Below are positions 3,616-40,878 of a stretch of DNA of 64,000 nucleotides, piece by piece (the first letter of the stretch is position 1; each line of letters starts with the position of its first letter). The translations under genes and the position numbers were made by a program. Location: positions 1 to 64,000 of IMG/VR virus record IMGVR_UViG_3300044699_000112; one strand, written 5' to 3'. The notes beneath the pieces are model-generated. The model saw only the letters and a program-made list of their open reading frames with translations. It did not search any database and was not told the DNA's origin. Origin of the DNA: a virus.

Positions 3616-3869
3616 CCCTCAACGAGGCGCTGGCGGCGGTGGTGGACCGGGTGCGGGCGCGCACTCTCTACACGGCCGACATCGAAACCGACCACGAGGG
3701 GGTACTTCTGGTGCATGTCAACGTGCCGATGGAGGACCACAAAAAGCTCGAGCACAAAAAGACGGGGCCGGTTTTGGCGGCGGCGCGCGAGGCGGCCCAA
3801 GAGCACGGGTTTAAGATTGCGGGGGGGCGGGCGAGTGCCCGCGGCATGGGGCTCCTGGTGGAGGTGTAA
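3606..3869 (+). CDS. Hypothetical protein
   Basis: Translationally coupled ORF with protein-like composition. Confidence 0.5.
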   Translation: MGMTLNEALAAVVDRVRARTLYTADIETDHEGVLLVHVNVPMEDHKKLEHKKTGPVLAAAREAAQEHGFKIAGGRASARGMGLLVEV

Positions 3870-3870
3870 G

Positions 3871-4044
3871 TTGAAAATATCCGAACTGATGGGCATGCTG
3901 CGCGATTACGAGACCAAGTTCGGCGATCAGGAGATCAAGATCCTCAACCTGGACGACGCCGAGAGTAATGCGCTTTTCATTCTCGACCTTGTCCCGGCGG
4001 ACGGGGAAGTAGCGGCGCTGCGCGTGGGTTTATTCGGCAACTAA
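3871..4044 (+). CDS. Hypothetical protein (MKISELMGMLRDYETKFGDQEI..)
   Basis: SD GGAGGTG upstream; N-terminal pattern common in small phage proteins. Confidence 0.55.
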   Translation: MKISELMGMLRDYETKFGDQEIKILNLDDAESNALFILDLVPADGEVAALRVGLFGN

Positions 4045-5105: not shown

Positions 5106-5306
5106 TCATTTCTTTTTTCCTTGCGAGCGGGCGAAGTCCATCGCTGCCTTTTGATGCATTTCGAGCAGACTGAAGTCGGTCTTCGACATCATGCCGTGGC
5201 TGGGGTTATACACGTCAACCTCCAGGCGCGGCTTCATCACGCCGAGCGGGTCGACCTTCTGGGGCGTGGGATCAGAATTACGGCAGCCGGGGCAATGTTC
5301 ACTCAT
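5106..5306 (-). CDS. Hypothetical protein
   Basis: First gene of the leftward cluster (MSEHCPGC...). Confidence 0.45.
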   Translation of the reverse strand: MSEHCPGCRNSDPTPQKVDPLGVMKPRLEVDVYNPSHGMMSKTDFSLLEMHQKAAMDFARSQGKKK

Positions 5307-5436
5307 GGGGTTCGCCTTTCCCTTCGGCGGGCACGAGTTGCTAAAAGGAGCCTCCTCCGAAACGCTCCCGCGCGAATCGCGCCCGCAGCAGGAATTCCAG
5401 CGTAAAAGGGGGCGCGGAAAAAAGCAAGGGGAATCT

Positions 5437-5554
5437 TTGCGCAAGCTGTGCTACGCTCAGATTGTCGCTTCACCTCGACATTGGCCGGTGCGGTTGTGGC
5501 GCCAACGCACTGCATCGGCCATCCGTTTCGGCGGGAAGGTGAACGAGGTGAAAG
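5437..5554 (+). promoter_or_regulatory. Extended -10 promoter and structured 5' leader occluding the SD
   Basis: TGTGcTACGCT at 5447-5457. TTCACCTCG (5469-5477) is complementary to CGAGGTGAA (5544-5552, the SD). Internal 13-bp stem and a UUCG-loop hairpin. Confidence 0.5.
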
Positions 5555-5914
5555 ATGGCGAAGATCAAACCGGCCGTAGCGCCGCCCGTGGACAACCTCT
5601 GGCTGCTCGAGCTCGACATGCAGGAGGTCCTGACGTTTGTGGGGCTGATGTCGGCGGCGATGGCCCATGTCCAGCGGATGCTCAACCCGATGACGGCGAG
5701 CTCGGGTTCCAAGTGCGAGGCGGTGAAGTACCTGCTGATGACGGCCGAGGCGGTCGAGAGGGGCGGTGACCTTGTGCGCCGCCTGCCCCCGTCGCAGGCT
5801 CATCCGTTCTACGAGGAGATCGAGACGCGGGTGCTCGCCAATATTGCCGATCTGCTCGAAGCCAACCGGCACGTGCACGACGACGAGGTCGAGGACAGGA
5901 CCAGGGTGAACTGA
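5555..5914 (+). CDS. Hypothetical helical protein
   Basis: SD GAGGTG; high GC3. Confidence 0.6.
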   Translation: MAKIKPAVAPPVDNLWLLELDMQEVLTFVGLMSAAMAHVQRMLNPMTASSGSKCEAVKYLLMTAEAVERGGDLVRRLPPSQAHPFYEEIETRVLANIADLLEANRHVHDDEVEDRTRVN

Positions 5915-6480
5915 TGAGCCCGAGTGATCTGGCGTTCCTCAAGGCGCTCGGCATCAAGGCCGAGGAGGTGCAACCGGCGGCGAAGCAGTGGAACGATGAG
6001 GCGCCGGTGTATGAGACGTGCCCGGAGTGCGGCGGCAAGCGCCACCGCTACCTCTCGGACGGACAGGTGTTCTGCCTCTCGTGCACGAACCGCAAACAGA
6101 GGGAGGCGCGCTACCAGAAGGCCCTGGCGGAGGCCCAGAAGGGCGCCATGATGTCCCGTGACCTCTATCTGGCGCAGCTTGCGTACCAGCGGGCCAAGGA
6201 AGAGTCCGCGGTTCTGAAATACCGGGGCTTCGAGATCTCCCACCTCAACGGCGTGGGCTGGTCCTATCGCCTGCCCAATGACAATGTCTTCGGCCACTGG
6301 ATGAAGGCCCACTCGCTCCAGGATGCCGAGCGCCGGGTCGATCGCGTCTGCGGCCCCGAGATCCGCCATGATGACGACGAGATCGCCTTCCCGCTCCTTG
6401 AAAACCAGTGCCGCGGTTGTGGGGCGCCCTGCGGAGCGCGGCGCTGGTGCCTCTCCTGCGCCAGGGACAAGTTCCTATGA
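5914..6480 (+). CDS. Hypothetical protein with two Zn-finger motifs
   Basis: CPECGG...CLSC and CRGCG...CLSC. Confidence 0.6.
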   Translation: MSPSDLAFLKALGIKAEEVQPAAKQWNDEAPVYETCPECGGKRHRYLSDGQVFCLSCTNRKQREARYQKALAEAQKGAMMSRDLYLAQLAYQRAKEESAVLKYRGFEISHLNGVGWSYRLPNDNVFGHWMKAHSLQDAERRVDRVCGPEIRHDDDEIAFPLLENQCRGCGAPCGARRWCLSCARDKFL

Positions 6481-31641: not shown

Positions 31642-34600
31642 TTGGCTATAAACGCGAACTCTATCGATCGAGCTCGGCAGGCCGGTTACAACGATGCCGA
31701 GATCATCGACCACATTGCCAGCCTGAAGGGCTACAAGGGCGTGCCCGAAGCACGCTCCGCGGGCTACTCCGACATGGAGATCCTCGGCCACCTGCGGACA
31801 CTCGAAGATCCCGTCAGTACGCCGACAGTGATACCTGGAGCGGAGAAGACCGGCACGCCCGGCATTGCCCCCACAACCCTGCCGAAGGGCCTGGGCGGCG
31901 GACCGGCCGGTTACCAGCCTCCGACCGAGGAGCCCTCGCCCTATGCACTCCCCGGCGCGGGCCTGACCGGCCGCCCCGGCATTCCGGAGGTAGAGCTCCC
32001 GGTGGGCCTCGGCGGCACCAAAGCTCCGTTCTCCACCGCCTACGATCCCTACAAGCGAGTCGGCCGCGCGCTCCCCAATCAGGTGTTCGGGGCGCCGCTG
32101 AAGACCGACGTGGGCGAGCTCGCCAAGCTCAAGGCCAAGGTGGCGCCTGGGTACTTGCCCGACGACGACACCGTTCTGCAAGGGTTCATGGGAGAGCCGA
32201 AGCCGGAGCCCCTATCCGAAGACCCAGGCTACGTAGAACGGATCCAGCACGGGCTTCGCGTAGGCTCCGAAGGAGTCGTATCGAGTGCGCTCAGCGGGGG
32301 CGAGGCCCTGGCCCGCCGCGCCGCCGTAGCACTTCCCAAGAAGTTCAAGCCTATCGCCGAAAGGGCTGAGTGGGAGCTCGCGCAGGCCAATGCCGGTAGA
32401 CCGGAAATGGAGCCAATGCCGGGCTCGAGCGTCCAGGAGCTCGCTGCGGACTCCGATCTCACTCTGAACAAAGTAGGCAAGTACGCTGTGGGATCTACGG
32501 CTCAGGCGATCCCGAGCATCGGGGCCACCGTGATTGCGTCCATGCTGCCGGGCGGCAAGATTGCCGGGCCTGCGCTTTCCTACCTGATGAGCGTGGGCGA
32601 GCTCTACGAGAACAACGTCAACAAGGGAGTCCACCCAGACGAAGCGGCCACGATCGCTGGACTAGGCGGCGGCCCGTCCGCCGCGCTGGACTACCTGGAG
32701 CCGTTCCGCATCAAGGCGGCCCTCACGGGCAAAACAACAAAGGCCCTCATTGAGGAGACGTACAAGAAACTGGGCATCCTGCGGCGGGCCGGTAAGGCGA
32801 CGGCCGAGGGCCTTGTCGAATCCGGCACCGAGATGGGCCAGGAGCTCATTGCGATTCTCTCTGAGTGGTACGGGACCGGGAAAGCCCCAGGCCTCAACGA
32901 GTCGCTCTGGCGGCTCGGCGAGTCTGGCGCCGGAGCGTTTGGCGCGGGCGGCATCGGCGGCGGAGTGCAGCAGGTCAGCGAGGCAAGGCACAACGCCGGT
33001 GCGCGGGCGTGGCAGGACTACCTGGAAAAGGAGAAGGCGGCCAGGGCAGGCGTCGCGCCTATGGCCCCTGGCGGCCCAGTCCCTGCCCCCGGAGCTCCCG
33101 CAGAGGCAGCGCCAGCCGAGGGGGAAGTGCCGCCGCCTGGAGCCGCGCCACCAGGAGCAGCCGCTGCGGGCCCGGCAGCCGATACGGCGCCGCCCAGGCC
33201 GCTCTTCGATAGCCCGGAGGACCTCTACCAGGACGCGACCCAGTTTGCCGGTGGCTTCCGCCAACTCGGCGTGACCGCGCTTTCCCAGAAGTACGGCATC
33301 ACCAAGGACGAGGCACATGCGATCCTCGAGCGTTTTGTTGAGGATGGCCTTTTTGCCGCTAAGCCGCTGAAGGGCGGCGGTGTCAGTTACGTGAACCTCG
33401 CGTTACAGCGCGAAGCCCGCGAGATCGACCCGGCTACCGGCCAGCGTATCCGTTCGCCGATCACCAAGAAGGGGGCCCTCGAAGAAGCAGCCGGGCAGTT
33501 CATCCCTCCAGGCGAGGGCGCGATCGCCCCCGGCGAGGGCCCGGCCGTAGAGGACGAAGAGGCTCCCCTGGCGGCCGCGCCGGTCATCGAGCAGCCGCGG
33601 ACCGAGCCGCCACCACTACCCACTCAACAAGCGCCTCCGCCCGCTCAGCAAGAGGCGCCGCCCCAGGAAGCCGGGCCGCAGCCTGACCAAGCCGACCTGG
33701 ACATGATCTACAGCGCCCCTTTGACCCAGGAGCAACAGGCGTGGGCCGTCGAGTTGCTGGGCCAGGGCCACTCTGTCGAAGACGCGATGGAGATCGCGCA
33801 CCGCGGCGAGGAAGCTCCGGCCGCGCCAGCACCAGTCCAAGCAAAGGAGGAGGCACCACAGAGACCAGAACCACTGCCGTCAGCATCGGAGCAGGCACCT
33901 CCGCCTGCTCCGGCGGCACCAGAGGTCCAGCAGGAACCCCTGGCAGCCGCCAAGCTACCCGAGGAGCAGCAGGCGCCTGCTGCCCAGGCTCCGGCGCCCG
34001 CGGTCCAAGAACCCTTAGAAGCAGCCAAGCCGCCCGAGCAGGCCGCGGCGCCGACAGGTACGCCATTCGACCAAGCGAAAGAGCACGCTAGGGGCAATAA
34101 AGCCATCAAGGCAGATGAGCTTATCCAAGGCTTCGGCCTCACGGCAGACGAGGCCCACAACGTCCTCTGGGATTTGTACCCGGCTCGTATGCGCAAGGAG
34201 AAGGCGAAGGCCATCGCCGCCGAGAGGCGCAGCGCCACCATCGAGGCCAGGAAGGCAAAGGCTGGCCAGCCGGAGCAGAAGCCAGGGCCGACCCCAGCGC
34301 CCTGGGAGATGACTCTGGAAGAGGTAAACCAGACCGGGTACATCGCCCGCGACGTTAACGCCGGGAACATGCCAATCGTGCGGCCCGCCACGATAGATGC
34401 TGGAACCGCGGCGTCGAACGCTTCCGAGCATAAGCGCGTAGTGGCCGAGGCAGTCGCTCAGGGTAAGCCGGTCCCGGCGAAGGTCCTGGCCGAATACCCT
34501 GACTTAGTTGCCATCGATCCGGCAGTTAAGGCCGCCATCAAGAGGCGCGAACGGGAGCGCGCAAAGGCTGCCCAGGCCGCGGCGCCCAAGACTGAACAGC

Positions 34601-37600
34601 AGGAGCCCTTGGCGGCGGCTAAGCCGCCCGAGCAGCAGCAGGCGCCACCTCCCCCAACAACCCAGGTTGCGGCCCCGTCAACTCAGGTTGAGCAGCCATT
34701 GGCTGCCGCCAAACCGATCGAGAAGGAGGCACCAAGTGGCACAGAAGCCAAAGCCGAGGAAGATTTTGCCCTCCCCGCCGGGGATGAGTCGACAGGCGGT
34801 CAAGCACTTCAACGTGGCCCAACTGGCGGCCGAGAAGGCGCGCCTGGAGGGGAAAGACGAGAAGGAGGCGTTCAAGGCCGCACTGCGGAAGCAGTGGAAG
34901 GAAAAGGCGAACTAGACTTCAGCGACGTACCTCTGAAGGCGGTCGCCAAGCCGAGCAGGGAAGGCTTCCTCGAACGGCTGAAGGCGGGCGATGTCAGGGG
35001 TATGTCGGTCGAGGTAATGGGCGCCGTCGCCAGGGGCCTCGTTAAAGCGGAGGACGCCGCGGCTCACATGGTCAAGACCTACGGCGCCAAGGCGAAGGCT
35101 TACGCCAAAGACGTTGCCGCCCAGGTCCAGGAGTGGGAGCAGAACCCGGCGCGCCTCGAAGAGATGGAGGCGTCGACCGCCCTGCCGAAGGGCAAGAACA
35201 AGACGGTTGACCCGATCACCGGCCTCGCCGTTACCGGCTACAACAACGCCATCAAGGACCCGAGCGCCTTTGCCAAGGCGATCGCCCTGATGAACAAGTA
35301 TGTGAACTTCGCCGACATTAACGAGGCGACGCCCGAGGCGACGGCCGAGAAGATGATCCAGCGGATCGTCGACAATCTGCTGTTCCTCCACGACAAGTAC
35401 AAGGAGCTCGGCTTCTCCGAGCGGGCACGTCTCTGGTACGACGGCGGGCGCAAGAAGGTCCTGGCGAACGCCGAAGAGTATGGCATCAACGAATTCCAGT
35501 CCGCCGCGGTGTTAGCCGTGTTCTCGCCGGAGAAGGACTGGTTCCAGAACGTCGACATGGCGCGGCGCATGCTCGAGTGGTGGAAGAACCGCAAGACGTT
35601 GAAGTGGACTCCGCAGATGGACGCCATCTACGTCAACAAGATCCTGCCAGCCAAGAGGAATCAGGACAAGAACACCGCCAAGAAGCGCGAGGCCAAGTAC
35701 CTGAAGGACCGCGCCGAGTTCCCGGCCAAGGTGGCCGAGTGGCGCAAAGCCAATCGCGAGGCGAGGCTCGCCGGGACCGCGAGACCGAAGAGGCCGAAGA
35801 GGCCGGAGCGGAAGCCGTTCGAGCCCAGCACCAAGGTCACCGATGCGCTCGCCGCCATCCAGGGCAAGGGCGCCAGCGAAATCAAGAGCACCTACCAGCA
35901 GGCCGTCTGGTTCCGGCTCTGGGACGAAGCGCATAACAGCCGGAACTACCAGATCATCAGCCCCGAGGGCGAGTACACCGGCCTCGCCATGACCGAGGCG
36001 AAAGAGGGCAAGGTCGGCAAGGGCGGCAAGATCGGCAAGGCGAAGGAAGCTAAGCCTGCCAAGGTGGCATGGTCGAGCTACAACCCGATGGTCAAGGCCC
36101 TGATGGTCCTCAAGGACGGCTCCTTTGAGAACATCAGCAGGCAGGTCGGCCAGCGGCACAAGGTCCGGAACTTTTACAACAACCTCCTCGACCCTGAGAA
36201 CCCCAACGGACACGTCACCTCCGACACACATGCCGTAGCGGCTGGCCTGATGCGGCCGCTGGGCGGCTCGGCGCTCGAGGTCGAGCACAATCTCGGCAAG
36301 GGCGTGGCCTCGGCCCGGACCGGCGAATCGGGCACCTACTGGATGTTCGCCGAAGCCTACCGGCGCGCCGCGCGCGAGCGCCATCTCCTGCCGCGGGAGA
36401 TGCAGTCGATCACCTGGGAAGCGGTGCGCGGGCTCTACAAAAATCTGAAGAGTAAGGCCAATAAAGATCGCGTTGTCGAGATCTGGAATGAAGTGAATAG
36501 TGGTAAAATTACTCCAGGTGAAGCACGTGAAAAGATCTATAAAGAGTTCAACGGAATCGACACGCCAGCCTGGGCCGGAAGCGGAACGGGACGAGGGCGG
36601 GATACTGCAGTTGATGAGGGAAGAGGGGGCGCCAAGGACGAGGAAGGAGTTCTTCGCTTACGCCTACCCGGACCTGGATCCGGAGGAGCCTCTGTCGGTG
36701 GAGGAGGAGGCGGATCTCCCCGAGGACTTGCAGCACGAGTCAATGAGGGAATCCGAAAAGTAGGCGATGCGCTCCGCGCGAGGCATCCGGCCAGTACGAA
36801 TGCCGCTATCGGCGCTTCCCTGGCTGGCTCGGATTACACGTTCAAGACCGGCCCCGGCCAGACCGGCACGGTGTACGCAAACCCGGCGGGCATCGAGTTC
36901 ATCGGCCACCTCACCAACGATCCGCATATCGGCGGAATAAACCTACCGGGCAAATCAGTCGATAACGTTCTCACCTTCATCGACAGCTTCGTCAACGGCC
37001 CGAACCCGAACCGGGCCCAGCTTGCCAAGCTGCAGCCGCTCTACGAGGGGATGGAGAAGTGGCGGCAGGCGAACCCTGGAACAGATGTCTCGCTGAACTT
37101 CGCCGTCCTCGACAATAAGCGCCCCTTCGCCTGGACCCGCCAGACCGCACGCGAAGAGCTCATCCACGGCTTCCAGCGCCTCAAGCAGGTCACCCGTGCC
37201 GCCCGCGAGACCATCCTGAAGACGCCGGTGTTTGAGAAAGCCCGCCTGGATCTGATCCGGCAGGGGTACGGTGACGACGTTGAGATCCGGCCCGGCGACA
37301 CCGCCGACGAGAAGGCCCAGAAGCACTTCATCGCCTGGATGGAGATCACCGCCAAGGTGCTCTCCGGGGACACGCTGGGGCTCACCATCTCCGAGCGCGA
37401 GGACGTGGCCTATGCGTACCGGGAGGCGCTGATCGCCGAGCATGGTGATGACGCCGTTCTCGTTTTCCGCTACCTGAAAGCCGGGTCCGTGAAGGATGTT
37501 TTCCTCGGCAAGAAGCTGCCGGGAGAGGGACTGCAGCGGGCACAGGCTGACCTGCAAGAGGGAGAGGCTGAACTGCAGCGGCTGCTGAAAGAACTACAGC

Positions 37601-40600
37601 AGATACTGGATGAGGAGAAGGCGAAGGGGGGTCCGCTGGCCGACCTCGACTTCGCCGAAGTCGACCTGCCTCACCTGACTGAGCCGGAAGGAGCCCTGAG
37701 GGCCCGCCAGCCCCAGCAGCCCCCGCAGCAGCCACAGACCACCCAGGCCCTGGCCACCACCACCCAGCAGCAGCAAGGCCAGCAGCAGAGCCAGCAGGGG
37801 CCGCAGCAGCCGCGAGGCGCCGGGCCCGGCGGCACCGGCCCCACTGTCGCCCAACGCTTCGACCAGACCAACGCGGCGGCGGAGCACGCGCGCCAGTCTG
37901 ACGAGAAGACGCGCATGGAAAAGTTCAAGGAGGGCATGAAGTTCATTGGCACGGCCTTCACGCGGCAGTTCCACCATATCCCCGCCGGTGCACTCTATGC
38001 CGAGTTCAAGCAGAAGCTGAACTTCGTTTCGAAGAGCCAGGGCAACGCGATCCACAAGGCGGCCCAGGCCATCATCGACCAGTTAGAGAAGCTCGACCCG
38101 GACGAGTACACTCAGTTCCTCCACGTGGTCCTCTACGACGATCTGGCCGCGCGCGTGATCCAGTCGATCAAAGAGAAAAAGCCGATACTCGCCAAGGACC
38201 TGCCGTTGGGCATCCAGGATGCCCGCGAGGTCATCAACTTCAAGACCGAGGCCCGCAACCGCGTCCGCGGCAATCCCAAGATCGTCGAGGCGCTCCGGCA
38301 GCGCAAGGCCATGTGGGACAAGATCAAGCCCGAGTACGTCGCGGCCATGCGCAGGGCTGGCGTCGACGTGTCCAAGGCCGTGGCGCGCAAGGACTACTTC
38401 CGCCATCGCGTGATCAAGCACCAGAAGGCCAAGGAACTGATCGGCGGAGGCGGCACCGGCGCCGGTCAACGCTTCAAGCTGCCCACGGCGCGTAGCTGGA
38501 TGAAGAAGGCCGAGGTCAACGCGAACACCTACTCGCTCGACTACATCCGCTCGGAGTTTGAAGTGCTCTCGGAGATGATGTACGACACCGAGCGCGCCAA
38601 CTTCATCGGCTGGCTCAAGAACGACTCCGGGCACAACATCTCTTCGCAACTGAAGCGGATGGCAGCGGCGCACAACAAGGCCGAAATCATGCCGACCTTC
38701 GCCCGCATGGCGCGCCACTACAACCAGAAGAATCCCCGCGCCCCCAGGATGACCGCCGAGATGGCCTACCAGAAGGTCATGAAGATGCGGCCGCGGGATC
38801 CAAGCTGGCGCACGCGCGTCACCAAGCGGATGGCAGGCGCCGAGTACGTGGGGAGCCTCGAGGCGGCGTATAACAAACTGACGCTGCCCAACGGCAACAA
38901 GGCGCTCGATACCCACGCCCTCTATCAGGCCAACGAGAAGGACCACTTCTTCCTGGCCGCGACCATCCCCGATTCGCTGGCGGCGGCGATCGAGGCCAAC
39001 GGCCAGGGGCGGGTCACGGCCGACAAGATCCGGAAGATCAAAGCCAAGGGCGCCCGCCAGGGGCAGATGGTGCTGCCGCGCGAAGTCATCGAGACCATGA
39101 AGGAGTTCATGCAGCCCCCGAGCACCAAGTGGGGGCAGTTTGTCGACAAGTGGAGCCGCAAGCCGCTGGCGTGGTGGAAGCAGTCCAAGCTAATCCATCC
39201 GGTGGCGGTGATCAAGTACAACCTGCGGAACCTCTCAGGCGACCTCGAGCGCGTGCTGATCACCAACCCGTACGCCCTGAAGCACGTGGGGCGGTCGATG
39301 GATGAGATTCGCAAGTTCATGAAGACCGGCCACCCGCCGAGCCCGGAGTTCGAGGCATGGTGGGAGCGCGGCGGCATGGACGCCAACCTCCAAGTGGCCG
39401 AGATCGGCGAGGTCAACCGGCTGCAGAAGCTCGTCCACCTCAAACTGAAGGATCCGAAACTGGGGCGGACCGAGAAGGGATTCGACAAGGCTGGTAAAGC
39501 CTGGGACGCCGTATGGAATACCACGAGGAAGATGACCGACTTCCGCGAAGGGATCCTGCGCTACGCCACGTTCCTGGAATATCAGAAGCAGATCGCGGCC
39601 AGCGGGACCGGCAAGCCGAACAACTTCGGGGCCTCGATCCGCGAGGAAGTGATGGCGCTCCGGAACATGGACGACCGGGCGTACAAACTCTCGAACGACC
39701 TGATGCTCGCCTACGACGAGGTGAGCGTGGCCGGTCAGACGCTGCGCCGTCACTTCATCCCCTTCTGGTCGTTCCAGGAGAAGAACCTCGGGGCCTACAA
39801 GCGCATGGTGGTCAACTCCTACAAGGACGGGAGGACTTCGGCGGCGATCGGCTATGCCGCGCTCGGCGCCAGCGCCTCGGCCCTGCGCGTGGGCCTCTGG
39901 ACCGCGGCGAAGATCGGCAAAACCCTGACCCTGGCGATGGCGCTCAAGGCACTCACCGAGATCTGGAACAACTATGTGATGGACGACGAGGAGGAGGATC
40001 TCCCCGAGGGCGTCAAGAAGTCGACCCACCTCATCCTGGGCCGGGACTCCAACGGCAAGGTGATCGCGTTCACACGCCTGGGCACGGCCGACGACATCCT
40101 CGAATGGGGCGGCCTCGAAGCGGCGCCCTACTACGTCAGGGAATTCCTCAACAACCGCATGACCTACGAGGATCTGGCCAAGGAGATCGCGCTCCGGCCG
40201 TTTGGCATCCCGCTGCCAATCAAACCGGCCATCAACAAGGTTGCGCAGAGCATCCATCCGGGGATCAAGACCACCGCCGAGTACGTCAGCGGCCGCGCTT
40301 GGTTCCCGAACGTCTTCGATCAGCGCGAGATTCGCGATCGCTACGAGTACATCGCCCGCGAGCTCGGCATGACCGCCGTCTACAAGGCAGCCGCCAGGAA
40401 GCCGCAGCCGAAGTTCTGGACGCCCGAGCGGGTCCTCGACCTGATGGTCTACCGCTACGATCCCAAGGAAACGCACTACAACTCCTTCAAGTACGACAAG
40501 GTGGCCAAGTGGGGCGCCGAGCATGGCGCCGACCCAGGAGGGGGCCTCTCGCAGAAGAAGGCGGCCGCGGCGCTCTACGACCTCCGCATGGCCGTCCGGT

Positions 40601-40878
40601 ACAACGATGACCGGGCGCGCGATGCGGCCCTCGTTGCGTACGGGGAGGCGGGCGGCACCCAGCAGAACCTGAAGAAGTCGATCGAGCGGCTCCATCCGCT
40701 CGGGACGTTGAAGAAGGCTCTGTGGAAGGACTTCGAGAAGTCGCTGAGCAAACCGGAAGCCGCTCAATTGAAAAAGGCTATACAGTTCTGGGAGGAAAAC
40801 TTCCACTCCAAGGTGGCGCAGATTGAAGGCGCCGCTTCCCGGCAAGGTCTGCCGGAGAAAAGAAAGCGAGGAAAGTGA
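31642..40878 (+). CDS. Giant (3078 aa) polyvalent ejection protein
   Basis: N-terminal ARxAGYxDxEI repeats; Gly/Ala membrane region; FtsK-gamma-like wHTH; HhH-GPD-like domain (KVRNF...SDTH); zincin-like EELIH; helical C-terminal region of the large-polyvalent-protein type. Confidence 0.85.
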   Translation: MAINANSIDRARQAGYNDAEIIDHIASLKGYKGVPEARSAGYSDMEILGHLRTLEDPVSTPTVIPGAEKTGTPGIAPTTLPKGLGGGPAGYQPPTEEPSPYALPGAGLTGRPGIPEVELPVGLGGTKAPFSTAYDPYKRVGRALPNQVFGAPLKTDVGELAKLKAKVAPGYLPDDDTVLQGFMGEPKPEPLSEDPGYVERIQHGLRVGSEGVVSSALSGGEALARRAAVALPKKFKPIAERAEWELAQANAGRPEMEPMPGSSVQELAADSDLTLNKVGKYAVGSTAQAIPSIGATVIASMLPGGKIAGPALSYLMSVGELYENNVNKGVHPDEAATIAGLGGGPSAALDYLEPFRIKAALTGKTTKALIEETYKKLGILRRAGKATAEGLVESGTEMGQELIAILSEWYGTGKAPGLNESLWRLGESGAGAFGAGGIGGGVQQVSEARHNAGARAWQDYLEKEKAARAGVAPMAPGGPVPAPGAPAEAAPAEGEVPPPGAAPPGAAAAGPAADTAPPRPLFDSPEDLYQDATQFAGGFRQLGVTALSQKYGITKDEAHAILERFVEDGLFAAKPLKGGGVSYVNLALQREAREIDPATGQRIRSPITKKGALEEAAGQFIPPGEGAIAPGEGPAVEDEEAPLAAAPVIEQPRTEPPPLPTQQAPPPAQQEAPPQEAGPQPDQADLDMIYSAPLTQEQQAWAVELLGQGHSVEDAMEIAHRGEEAPAAPAPVQAKEEAPQRPEPLPSASEQAPPPAPAAPEVQQEPLAAAKLPEEQQAPAAQAPAPAVQEPLEAAKPPEQAAAPTGTPFDQAKEHARGNKAIKADELIQGFGLTADEAHNVLWDLYPARMRKEKAKAIAAERRSATIEARKAKAGQPEQKPGPTPAPWEMTLEEVNQTGYIARDVNAGNMPIVRPATIDAGTAASNASEHKRVVAEAVAQGKPVPAKVLAEYPDLVAIDPAVKAAIKRRERERAKAAQAAAPKTEQQEPLAAAKPPEQQQAPPPPTTQVAAPSTQVEQPLAAAKPIEKEAPSGTEAKAEEDFALPAGDESTGGQALQRGPTGGREGAPGGERREGGVQGRTAEAVEGKGELDFSDVPLKAVAKPSREGFLERLKAGDVRGMSVEVMGAVARGLVKAEDAAAHMVKTYGAKAKAYAKDVAAQVQEWEQNPARLEEMEASTALPKGKNKTVDPITGLAVTGYNNAIKDPSAFAKAIALMNKYVNFADINEATPEATAEKMIQRIVDNLLFLHDKYKELGFSERARLWYDGGRKKVLANAEEYGINEFQSAAVLAVFSPEKDWFQNVDMARRMLEWWKNRKTLKWTPQMDAIYVNKILPAKRNQDKNTAKKREAKYLKDRAEFPAKVAEWRKANREARLAGTARPKRPKRPERKPFEPSTKVTDALAAIQGKGASEIKSTYQQAVWFRLWDEAHNSRNYQIISPEGEYTGLAMTEAKEGKVGKGGKIGKAKEAKPAKVAWSSYNPMVKALMVLKDGSFENISRQVGQRHKVRNFYNNLLDPENPNGHVTSDTHAVAAGLMRPLGGSALEVEHNLGKGVASARTGESGTYWMFAEAYRRAARERHLLPREMQSITWEAVRGLYKNLKSKANKDRVVEIWNEVNSGKITPGEAREKIYKEFNGIDTPAWAGSGTGRGRDTAVDEGRGGAKDEEGVLRLRLPGPGSGGASVGGGGGGSPRGLAARVNEGIRKVGDALRARHPASTNAAIGASLAGSDYTFKTGPGQTGTVYANPAGIEFIGHLTNDPHIGGINLPGKSVDNVLTFIDSFVNGPNPNRAQLAKLQPLYEGMEKWRQANPGTDVSLNFAVLDNKRPFAWTRQTAREELIHGFQRLKQVTRAARETILKTPVFEKARLDLIRQGYGDDVEIRPGDTADEKAQKHFIAWMEITAKVLSGDTLGLTISEREDVAYAYREALIAEHGDDAVLVFRYLKAGSVKDVFLGKKLPGEGLQRAQADLQEGEAELQRLLKELQQILDEEKAKGGPLADLDFAEVDLPHLTEPEGALRARQPQQPPQQPQTTQALATTTQQQQGQQQSQQGPQQPRGAGPGGTGPTVAQRFDQTNAAAEHARQSDEKTRMEKFKEGMKFIGTAFTRQFHHIPAGALYAEFKQKLNFVSKSQGNAIHKAAQAIIDQLEKLDPDEYTQFLHVVLYDDLAARVIQSIKEKKPILAKDLPLGIQDAREVINFKTEARNRVRGNPKIVEALRQRKAMWDKIKPEYVAAMRRAGVDVSKAVARKDYFRHRVIKHQKAKELIGGGGTGAGQRFKLPTARSWMKKAEVNANTYSLDYIRSEFEVLSEMMYDTERANFIGWLKNDSGHNISSQLKRMAAAHNKAEIMPTFARMARHYNQKNPRAPRMTAEMAYQKVMKMRPRDPSWRTRVTKRMAGAEYVGSLEAAYNKLTLPNGNKALDTHALYQANEKDHFFLAATIPDSLAAAIEANGQGRVTADKIRKIKAKGARQGQMVLPREVIETMKEFMQPPSTKWGQFVDKWSRKPLAWWKQSKLIHPVAVIKYNLRNLSGDLERVLITNPYALKHVGRSMDEIRKFMKTGHPPSPEFEAWWERGGMDANLQVAEIGEVNRLQKLVHLKLKDPKLGRTEKGFDKAGKAWDAVWNTTRKMTDFREGILRYATFLEYQKQIAASGTGKPNNFGASIREEVMALRNMDDRAYKLSNDLMLAYDEVSVAGQTLRRHFIPFWSFQEKNLGAYKRMVVNSYKDGRTSAAIGYAALGASASALRVGLWTAAKIGKTLTLAMALKALTEIWNNYVMDDEEEDLPEGVKKSTHLILGRDSNGKVIAFTRLGTADDILEWGGLEAAPYYVREFLNNRMTYEDLAKEIALRPFGIPLPIKPAINKVAQSIHPGIKTTAEYVSGRAWFPNVFDQREIRDRYEYIARELGMTAVYKAAARKPQPKFWTPERVLDLMVYRYDPKETHYNSFKYDKVAKWGAEHGADPGGGLSQKKAAAALYDLRMAVRYNDDRARDAALVAYGEAGGTQQNLKKSIERLHPLGTLKKALWKDFEKSLSKPEAAQLKKAIQFWEENFHSKVAQIEGAASRQGLPEKRKRGK
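34736..34915 (+). CDS. Nested +1-frame gene A inside the giant protein (59 aa, basic helical)
   Basis: SD AAGGAGG (34723-34729) 6 nt before GTG. Codon bias moves to the +1 frame while the outer frame becomes a Gly-rich linker. Confidence 0.65.
   Translation: MAQKPKPRKILPSPPGMSRQAVKHFNVAQLAAEKARLEGKDEKEAFKAALRKQWKEKAN
36527..36763 (+). CDS. Nested +1-frame gene B inside the giant protein (78 aa, acidic C-terminal half)
   Basis: Extended -10 TGGTAAAAT (36501-36509), SD AGGTGA (36516-36521), GTG at 36527, high-GC3 codons in the +1 frame. Confidence 0.7.
   Translation: MKRSIKSSTESTRQPGPEAERDEGGILQLMREEGAPRTRKEFFAYAYPDLDPEEPLSVEEEADLPEDLQHESMRESEK

Follow-up and report, generated by a model that had tools for sequence, protein, structure and literature searches.

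A probable small gene overprinted on an inter-domain linker of a giant phage structural-region gene

The DNA analyzed here, referred to as the window, is a stretch of 64,000 nucleotides (positions 1 to 64,000 of IMG/VR virus record IMGVR_UViG_3300044699_000112) that forms part of a 74,233-bp record of an uncultured soil phage with 63% G+C; a sequencing-run search found near-identical sequence in the soil metagenomes of many studies. Within the window, a giant open reading frame (ORF) of 3078 codons contains a second ORF of 59 codons, which lies in the +1 frame at positions 34736–34915 and has its own Shine-Dalgarno (SD) sequence and GTG start codon. In the outer frame, the DNA of the small ORF reads ...GGQALQRGPTGGREGAPGGERREGG... 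and belongs to a linker region between domains of the giant protein. An earlier note on this DNA had proposed a nested gene at this site from the AAGGAGG sequence, the six-nucleotide spacer, the GTG at 34736 and a 59-residue translation, and each of these elements was found where it had been placed. The coordinates of all features discussed below are collected in Table 1.

The codon bias shifts to the +1 frame over the small ORF, as the earlier note had claimed. For positions 34740–34915 read in +1, the G+C content at the three codon positions is 0.65/0.40/0.88, compared with 0.66/0.46/0.81 for the whole giant ORF, and the third-position G+C content of the outer frame is down to 0.33–0.45 across the nested ORF. 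A codon log-likelihood scan of the 9.2-kb giant ORF, trained on 13 other genes of the window, revealed two strong +1 stretches, 34732–34941 and 36562–36786, with scores up to 28–30, along with weaker blips of up to ~10 near 33052–33186. This frame structure is not the result of an assembly error, because contigs of four independent soil metagenomes reproduce the region 34500–35100, where they cover it, with 0 differing bases and 0 insertions or deletions. The combination of SD sequence, spacer and start codon (AAGGAGG-N5-8-DTG) occurs three times in 64 kb versus 1.17 expected, and at least three occurrences were reached in 15 of 100 shuffles, so that the motif alone is not significant. Its significance lies in its conservation among relatives, not in the number of its occurrences. 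The nested gene is present in the genome as a single copy; other genes of the phage have GGAG-type SD sequences, and their second codon is often an alanine codon.

Ten lineages have a homolog within a giant ORF, in its +1 frame: the window itself and nine others (L001, L002, L005, L011, L017, L020, L021, L022 and L033), which were collected by scans of viral and metagenome contigs and from two protein libraries. Several of these lineages were met more than once (L001 also as L004 and L007; L002 as L003 and L006; L005 as L008; L011 as L010 and L012; L017 as L018). In all ten, the nested ORF contains no internal stop and the giant ORF is open across it. The pattern that the earlier note had put forward as contrary evidence, namely relatives that keep the outer frame with stops in the +1 frame, was thus not seen in any of the ten lineages. 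The length of the nested ORF and the position of its stop codon are likewise kept throughout. The start codon occupies one fixed position, where eight lineages have GTG, L017 has TTG and L021 has ATG; the codon that follows it is GCA or GCG in every case, and a sequence of the type (A/G)GGAG(G/A) is located 6–9 nucleotides 5′ of the start in 10 of 10 lineages. The outer codon that provides the first two bases of the start varies, encoding Arg, Ser, Phe or Tyr. Since the start is maintained through changes between GTG, TTG and ATG as the outer codon varies, it behaves as an initiation codon and not as passenger sequence.

The same small protein was predicted by gene callers (P0004–P0008), and then only on short contigs that truncate the giant ORF. 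Scans for related loci assigned P0007 and P0008 to viral contigs; no viral contig matched P0006. Because gene finders reject nested genes that are out of frame with their host gene, the protein family is essentially unannotated. A collection of cultured phages yielded neither a DNA match nor a peptide match, a scan of genome contigs revealed no prophage copy, and no in-frame fused form was found among proteins of 112–2000 amino acids, which is weak evidence.

A programmed +1 frameshift near AAGGAGG would also bring the peptide into being, in this case as the C-terminus of a truncated giant protein ending at 34913. During recoding of prfB (+1) and dnaX (−1), a strong SD-like sequence located within the coding region just before the frame change acts as a stimulator, and the SD sequence of the nested gene has the same character and position. 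The +1 frame of the window is open for 76 codons before the GTG, and U-runs suitable for slippage of tRNA-Phe are present in L017 (GCA UUU UUU G) and L005 (GCA UUU C). However, unlike in prfB and dnaX, no slippery site is conserved, the corresponding sequence being GCA CCA AGU in the window, GCA UUC CGU in L001 and L002, and UUC CAA CGU in L011. Moreover, a +1 TGA or TAA lies inside the SD sequence, four codons before the start, in at least four relatives (L001, L002, L005 and L017), leaving ~12 nucleotides for the shift, and a frameshift site would not need the start codon that is conserved instead. We therefore favor independent initiation, given that no shift codon is shared, +1 stops are found near the start and the start codon is maintained, and consider the frameshift improbable.

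At the next junction between domains, the giant gene contains a second nested +1 ORF, which encodes an acidic product ending in ...EEEADLPEDLQHESMRESEK. Its homologs are found in +1 at the same junction in L007 (5765–6004) and L002 (6774/6831–7043), and the products share the motif G.P.TR..(F/Y). Database relatives of this second ORF are three small proteins only, two of which equal the L007 and L002 products in length. A possible link of the motif, in the form G.PLTR..Y, to a widespread family of small proteins was not confirmed, as the search returned only the copies from this phage group. L002 contains, in addition, a third nested +1 ORF of 56 amino acids with a +1 codon-bias signal (3705–3872), located at another junction of its giant gene and found in this relative only. 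The earlier proposal that nested genes are located at inter-domain junctions is thus upheld by the second nested ORF, which occupies the same junction in L007 and L002, and by the third in L002. In L017, one junction consists of an ordinary stop and restart between two genes, and hence both fused and unfused states occur in the group.

To compare selection on the two frames, synonymous and non-synonymous differences were counted in an ungapped 34-codon core of the nested gene for six sequences representing five lineages. The number of synonymous codon differences is 2–8 in the nested frame versus 0–3 in the outer frame. In the two closest pairs, the ratio of synonymous to non-synonymous differences is 5:2 (nested frame) versus 1:6 (outer frame) and 4:1 versus 0:4, respectively. 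Amino acid identity over this core is higher for the nested than for the outer frame in every pair, that is, the outer frame evolves faster over the shared DNA. Among the nine lineages that possess the adjacent domain of the giant protein, conservation of the nested protein also exceeds that of this domain in 36 of 36 pairs, the mean identities being 56% and 40%, respectively. The domains on either side, which are clearly coding, are read in the same phase as the outer frame itself. When the synonymous codons of each nested protein were redrawn according to the codon usage of the phage, the outer frame was stop-free in 5–16% of resamples, as opposed to 10 of the 10 cases observed (six lineages of the nested gene, three of the second nested gene and one of the third). 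The excess of synonymous changes, the higher identity and the open outer frame together show purifying selection on the nested frame and selection for an open outer frame, a case of dual coding. The comparison indicates that the nested frame is selected for its amino acid sequence and the outer frame mainly for staying open and in phase.

These data also bear on the possibility that conservation acts at the level of nucleotides or RNA, through an element that is structured or regulatory or through a junction at which modules recombine, with an open +1 frame that is incidental. The region is indeed a conserved nucleotide island between more divergent flanks, and the site is a junction where modules were exchanged or deleted. 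Nevertheless, the changes are codon-periodic and mostly synonymous in +1, the nested protein retains 41–64% identity where the adjacent domain has only 27–40%, and constancy of ORF length and stop position in ten lineages is not what such an element would call for. No Rfam match was found in 34300–35100, and the leader (34640–34770) folds no better than shuffled sequences (z = −0.66). We consider this explanation quite unlikely.

The earlier note had further interpreted two CAAC-N4-GTTG palindromes located just upstream of the SD sequence as operator-like. Both exist at 34658–34669 and 34679–34690, and they are the only two in the 74,233-bp genome. Their spacing of 21 bp corresponds to two helical turns, and the pair ends 46 nucleotides before the GTG and 33 nucleotides from the SD sequence, as might be expected of operators of an internal promoter serving the nested gene. 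A pair with the same spacing is the sole occurrence in the 73-kb genome of L002 and is also present in L001/L007, so that the half-sites are retained in two other lineages. Rare codons, xCA (6–8% among those for Thr/Ser) and GTT (11% among those for Val), are used in all six half-site pairs, a hint of nucleotide-level constraint or of recent shared descent. However, ~2.4 kb separate the pair from the nested gene downstream of it in L001/L007 and L002, four genomes in which the gene is present (G002, G004, G005 and G008) lack the pair, and no promoter-like site was found in 33800–35400. The pair is, moreover, a 21-bp tandem repeat that encodes a heptad peptide repeat of the (S/T)TxV type in the outer frame; in L002, EPSTPVV is encoded twice and the two copies are identical. 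The pair is thus not the operator of the nested gene, and an internal promoter controlled by it is very improbable. The palindromes form a conserved island of ~30 nucleotides amid otherwise unalignable flanks, and may represent either a nucleotide-level element or a recently shared repeat.

Least probable of all is a decaying relic, a separate small gene swallowed by fusion and no longer expressed or needed, with the outer linker alone being of consequence: the nested frame has an ancestral-looking codon bias and no function or family was found for its product, but a relic would gather stops and indels, and here the gene is intact in ten lineages where the adjacent domain is only 27–75% identical, its start and SD sequence are kept, and it surpasses the host domain in conservation in every pair compared.

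We thus consider it likely, with a probability of roughly 0.8, that 34736–34915 is a real protein-coding gene that is overprinted in +1 on a linker between domains of the giant protein, has an SD sequence and a start of its own, and is one of at least two such genes in the giant ORF. For sequence data alone the case is unusually clean, combining ten lineages, a start that varies without moving, conservation above that of the host domain and an open outer frame. We infer that the nested product is translated. Several observations weigh on the other side. The lineages are related and hence are not fully independent trials. The SD sequence overlaps a conserved peptide motif of the outer frame, V-K-E-A-F, and the outer frame could explain part of its conservation. 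The sequencing-run search returned no RNA run holding the sequence; for the 59-residue protein, no Pfam or PHROG match and no usable match in the ESM Atlas was obtained; and the small gene was not found as a free-standing copy.

If the nested gene operates as proposed, ribosomes would load at the internal AAGGAGG on the late structural mRNA, begin at GTG 34736 and release a free protein of 59 residues, ending at TAG 34913. Ribosomes arriving from the TTG start of the giant gene would read the same 180 nucleotides one base earlier and go on into the next domain, and the Gly/Arg/Glu/Pro-rich outer reading would presumably serve as a flexible linker. The TTG is a weak start, which may keep ribosome traffic over the internal SD sequence low and leave it accessible.

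An AlphaFold2 (AF2) model of the 59-residue protein, obtained with an 8-row alignment, shows a disordered Lys/Pro/Arg-rich N-terminus and two helices (residues 19–38 and 42–58), with a predicted local distance difference test score (pLDDT) of 77; in the model, a helical hairpin thus follows a basic, disordered tail. The protein has neither cysteine nor a hydrophobic N-terminus. In two lineages, a long Pro/Gln-rich insert separates the conserved N-terminal MA from the hairpin. A Foldseek search with the hairpin model gave generic helical matches only, none at E ≤ 0.001. A profile search of 1.84 billion representatives yielded this phage group's own small proteins, four in number, and a single borderline match to a repeat in an unrelated 380-residue protein (P0009, E 9e-4).

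The earlier note had left the partner of the small protein to be chosen between the upstream GKPVPAKVLAEYPDL module and the downstream domain of the giant protein. Synteny points to neither: the conserved neighbor is a domain of ~230 residues with an EExxH motif (working name VYAN), which directly precedes the nested gene in nine of the ten lineages. In the same nine lineages, the SD sequence lies within the codons that end this domain, V-K-E-A-F (or R-E-V-F, V-R-E-A-F or V-K-E-T-F). In L001, for example, the domain spans 5146–5755 and is followed by the nested gene at 5756–5947. The window is the exception, as the copy before the nested gene is missing and its sole copy is found 2.1 kb downstream, after the DUF7178 module; nucleotide similarity between the window and L001 restarts at the SD sequence, at GAAGGAGGCA. 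L007 and L002 have two copies of the domain each.

The invariant residues of the EExxH domain are Y, N, EE..H..Q, D and E.TAK. The domain has no Pfam match and no sequence match in the Protein Data Bank (PDB). Its AF2 model (pLDDT 80) has weak structural matches, with Z scores of 4.1–4.8 over 133–152 residues, to domains of anthrax lethal factor, the N-terminal region of edema factor and the N-domain of Certhrax. With regard to zincin-like metallopeptidases, the invariant motif of the domain is EExxHxxQ and not HExxH, and the structural resemblance is weak (Z < 5). Co-folding of the 59-residue protein with the EExxH domain of the window, using 8-row alignments for each and no controls, gave a score of 0.00, which speaks neither for nor against binding. 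The in-frame tail that follows the EExxH domain of the window (KKLPGEGLQRAQADLQ...) was considered as a homolog of the nested peptide and rejected (hhalign probability 0.1%); the tails of the second EExxH copies in L007 and L002 are unrelated. From the conserved adjacency, we tentatively suggest that the EExxH domain and the small protein might function jointly, the latter serving, for example, as chaperone or regulator of the former.

The nested frame looks like the older of the two and the linker like the newer, codon usage being the single line of evidence for this order. On this evidence, the giant protein looks as if it had been joined across the small gene without losing it. The repeated architecture suggests a more general route, in which gene fusion into a polyprotein proceeds without the loss of intervening genes, in a phage under no obvious pressure toward genome compression. 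It is conceivable, albeit doubtful at present, that giant proteins of this kind were built by reading through small genes, whose out-of-frame translation became the linkers and whose products remained as dedicated partners (chaperones or inhibitors) of the neighboring cargo domains; the hairpin protein would then be the partner of the EExxH domain, and the ratio of the two would be set by the strong SD sequence relative to the weak TTG. If the small proteins do partner virion or injected domains, they would offer a handle on how cargo proteins of this size are folded, held in an inactive state or loaded.

Among known systems, the spanin gene Rz1 of phage lambda occupies the +1 frame within Rz; it has a ribosome-binding site and a start of its own, and the products of the two genes are functional. 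The gene described here resembles Rz1 in being a small gene wholly contained in a larger phage gene, in +1, with its own SD sequence and start. Unlike the Rz1 o-spanin, the 59-residue protein has no signal peptide, lipobox or cysteine; its host gene is a 3078-codon gene for a presumed virion protein rather than an i-spanin gene, and each host gene accommodates two or three nested genes, all of them at domain junctions. Phages are known to encode polyvalent virion or ejection proteins with multiple domains, and the giant protein, a multi-domain product of the structural module with shuffled modules, resembles them; to our knowledge, conserved out-of-frame genes have not been reported from the junctions between domains in such proteins. 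Literature searches, including full-text searches, returned general work on overlapping genes and nothing on nested genes in giant phage virion proteins.

The closest model we found for the proposed history, by analogy, is the modular-overprinting model of the polymerase spacer of hepatitis B virus (HBV) and preS/S, in which two domain genes were originally separated by a short gene, a frame newly arisen inside it became the linking spacer and the short gene itself was kept (reviewed in PMC8227390, section 8); codon usage is described there as a criterion for the ancestral frame of an overlap (PMC8227390). As in that model, the nested frame here has genome-like codon usage, and the outer frame, which joins the domains, is atypical, fast-evolving and of low complexity. 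In contrast to HBV, the present case concerns a tailed double-stranded DNA phage in which coding space is not scarce, a single protein shows the pattern at several of its junctions, and no unfused ancestor was found. Overprinted genes of the phiX174 type, B in A and E in D (PMC8227390, refs 11-12), likewise represent out-of-frame internal overlaps with independent initiation. They differ in that they occur in a very small single-stranded DNA genome under size pressure, where the nested gene is usually taken to be the newer one, whereas here it looks older.

Table 1 Features of the nested-gene locus and its surroundings (window coordinates unless a relative is named).
Feature	Position	Strand	Remarks
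Giant host gene	31642..40878	+	3078-codon ORF; TTG start with AGGAG upstream
CAAC-N4-GTTG palindrome pair	34658-34669, 34679-34690	+	21 bp apart; outer-frame tandem heptad TTQVAAP/STQVEQP
SD sequence AAGGAGG	34723..34729	+	6 nt (CACCAA) before GTG; outer-frame codons E-K-E-A
Outer-frame reading of the nested DNA	34735..34917	+	Giant protein residues 1032-1092; Gly/Arg/Glu/Pro-rich; upstream linker region to the DUF7178 module
Nested gene	34736..34915	+	+1 frame of giant ORF; 59 codons; GTG start; TAG stop 34913-34915
DUF7178 / phrog_3842 module of giant protein	34918..36558	+	Downstream of nested gene; Pfam/PHROG match
Second nested +1 ORF, acidic	36527..36763	+	Candidate starts GTG 36527, TTG 36611, ATG 36614; next domain junction
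EExxH domain (working name VYAN) of giant protein	36835..37581	+	Residues ~1732-1980
Terminase large subunit	8652		Structural block landmark
Tail-spike-like gene	21241		Structural block landmark
Tail fiber gene	41465		Structural block landmark
Palindrome pair in relatives	L001 3230-3262; L002 2565-2597		

The giant ORF is located within the structural gene block, with unassigned structural-region ORFs on one side and the tail fiber gene on the other, and its product is presumed to be a virion or ejection protein. The sole part of this protein with a described family is the DUF7178 / phrog_3842 match (residues 1482–1597; Pfam and PHROGs), and a literature search found no paper mentioning DUF7178. 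The DUF7178 module is 54–55% identical in L001/L007. Modules are shuffled between relatives in the giant protein: the module 3′ of the nested gene is DUF7178 in the window, L001 and L002, and is replaced by modules without detectable similarity to it in L011, L017 and L033; in L011 and L017, both of which still carry the nested gene, the DUF7178 module is unmatched. In L033 (~1750–1800; G004 ~27900), the module that follows the nested gene opens with ...GGSQAQLVQASNGKYYVVKFADNPQ..., unlike the DUF7178 module of the window, which indicates module swapping directly downstream of the nested gene.

Relatives of the DUF7178 module in cultured phages are distant only (31–34% identity) and come from three marine Rhodobacteraceae-type phages, in which the module resides in an ordinary separate gene. 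In Roseobacter phage CRP-738 (L009, 6598–9320), this is the 835-residue gene gp40, which adjoins the portal gene; in front of it is a separate 71-residue gene (gp41), whose product shows no evident resemblance to the nested protein. Between the modules of the giant protein of the window, a linker motif, EPLAAAKPPE, occurs five times in variant forms (for example, at residues ~700–1030), and L001 has repeats of PG(K/E)VTSPE in its place. The two may be lineage-specific linker or processing motifs.

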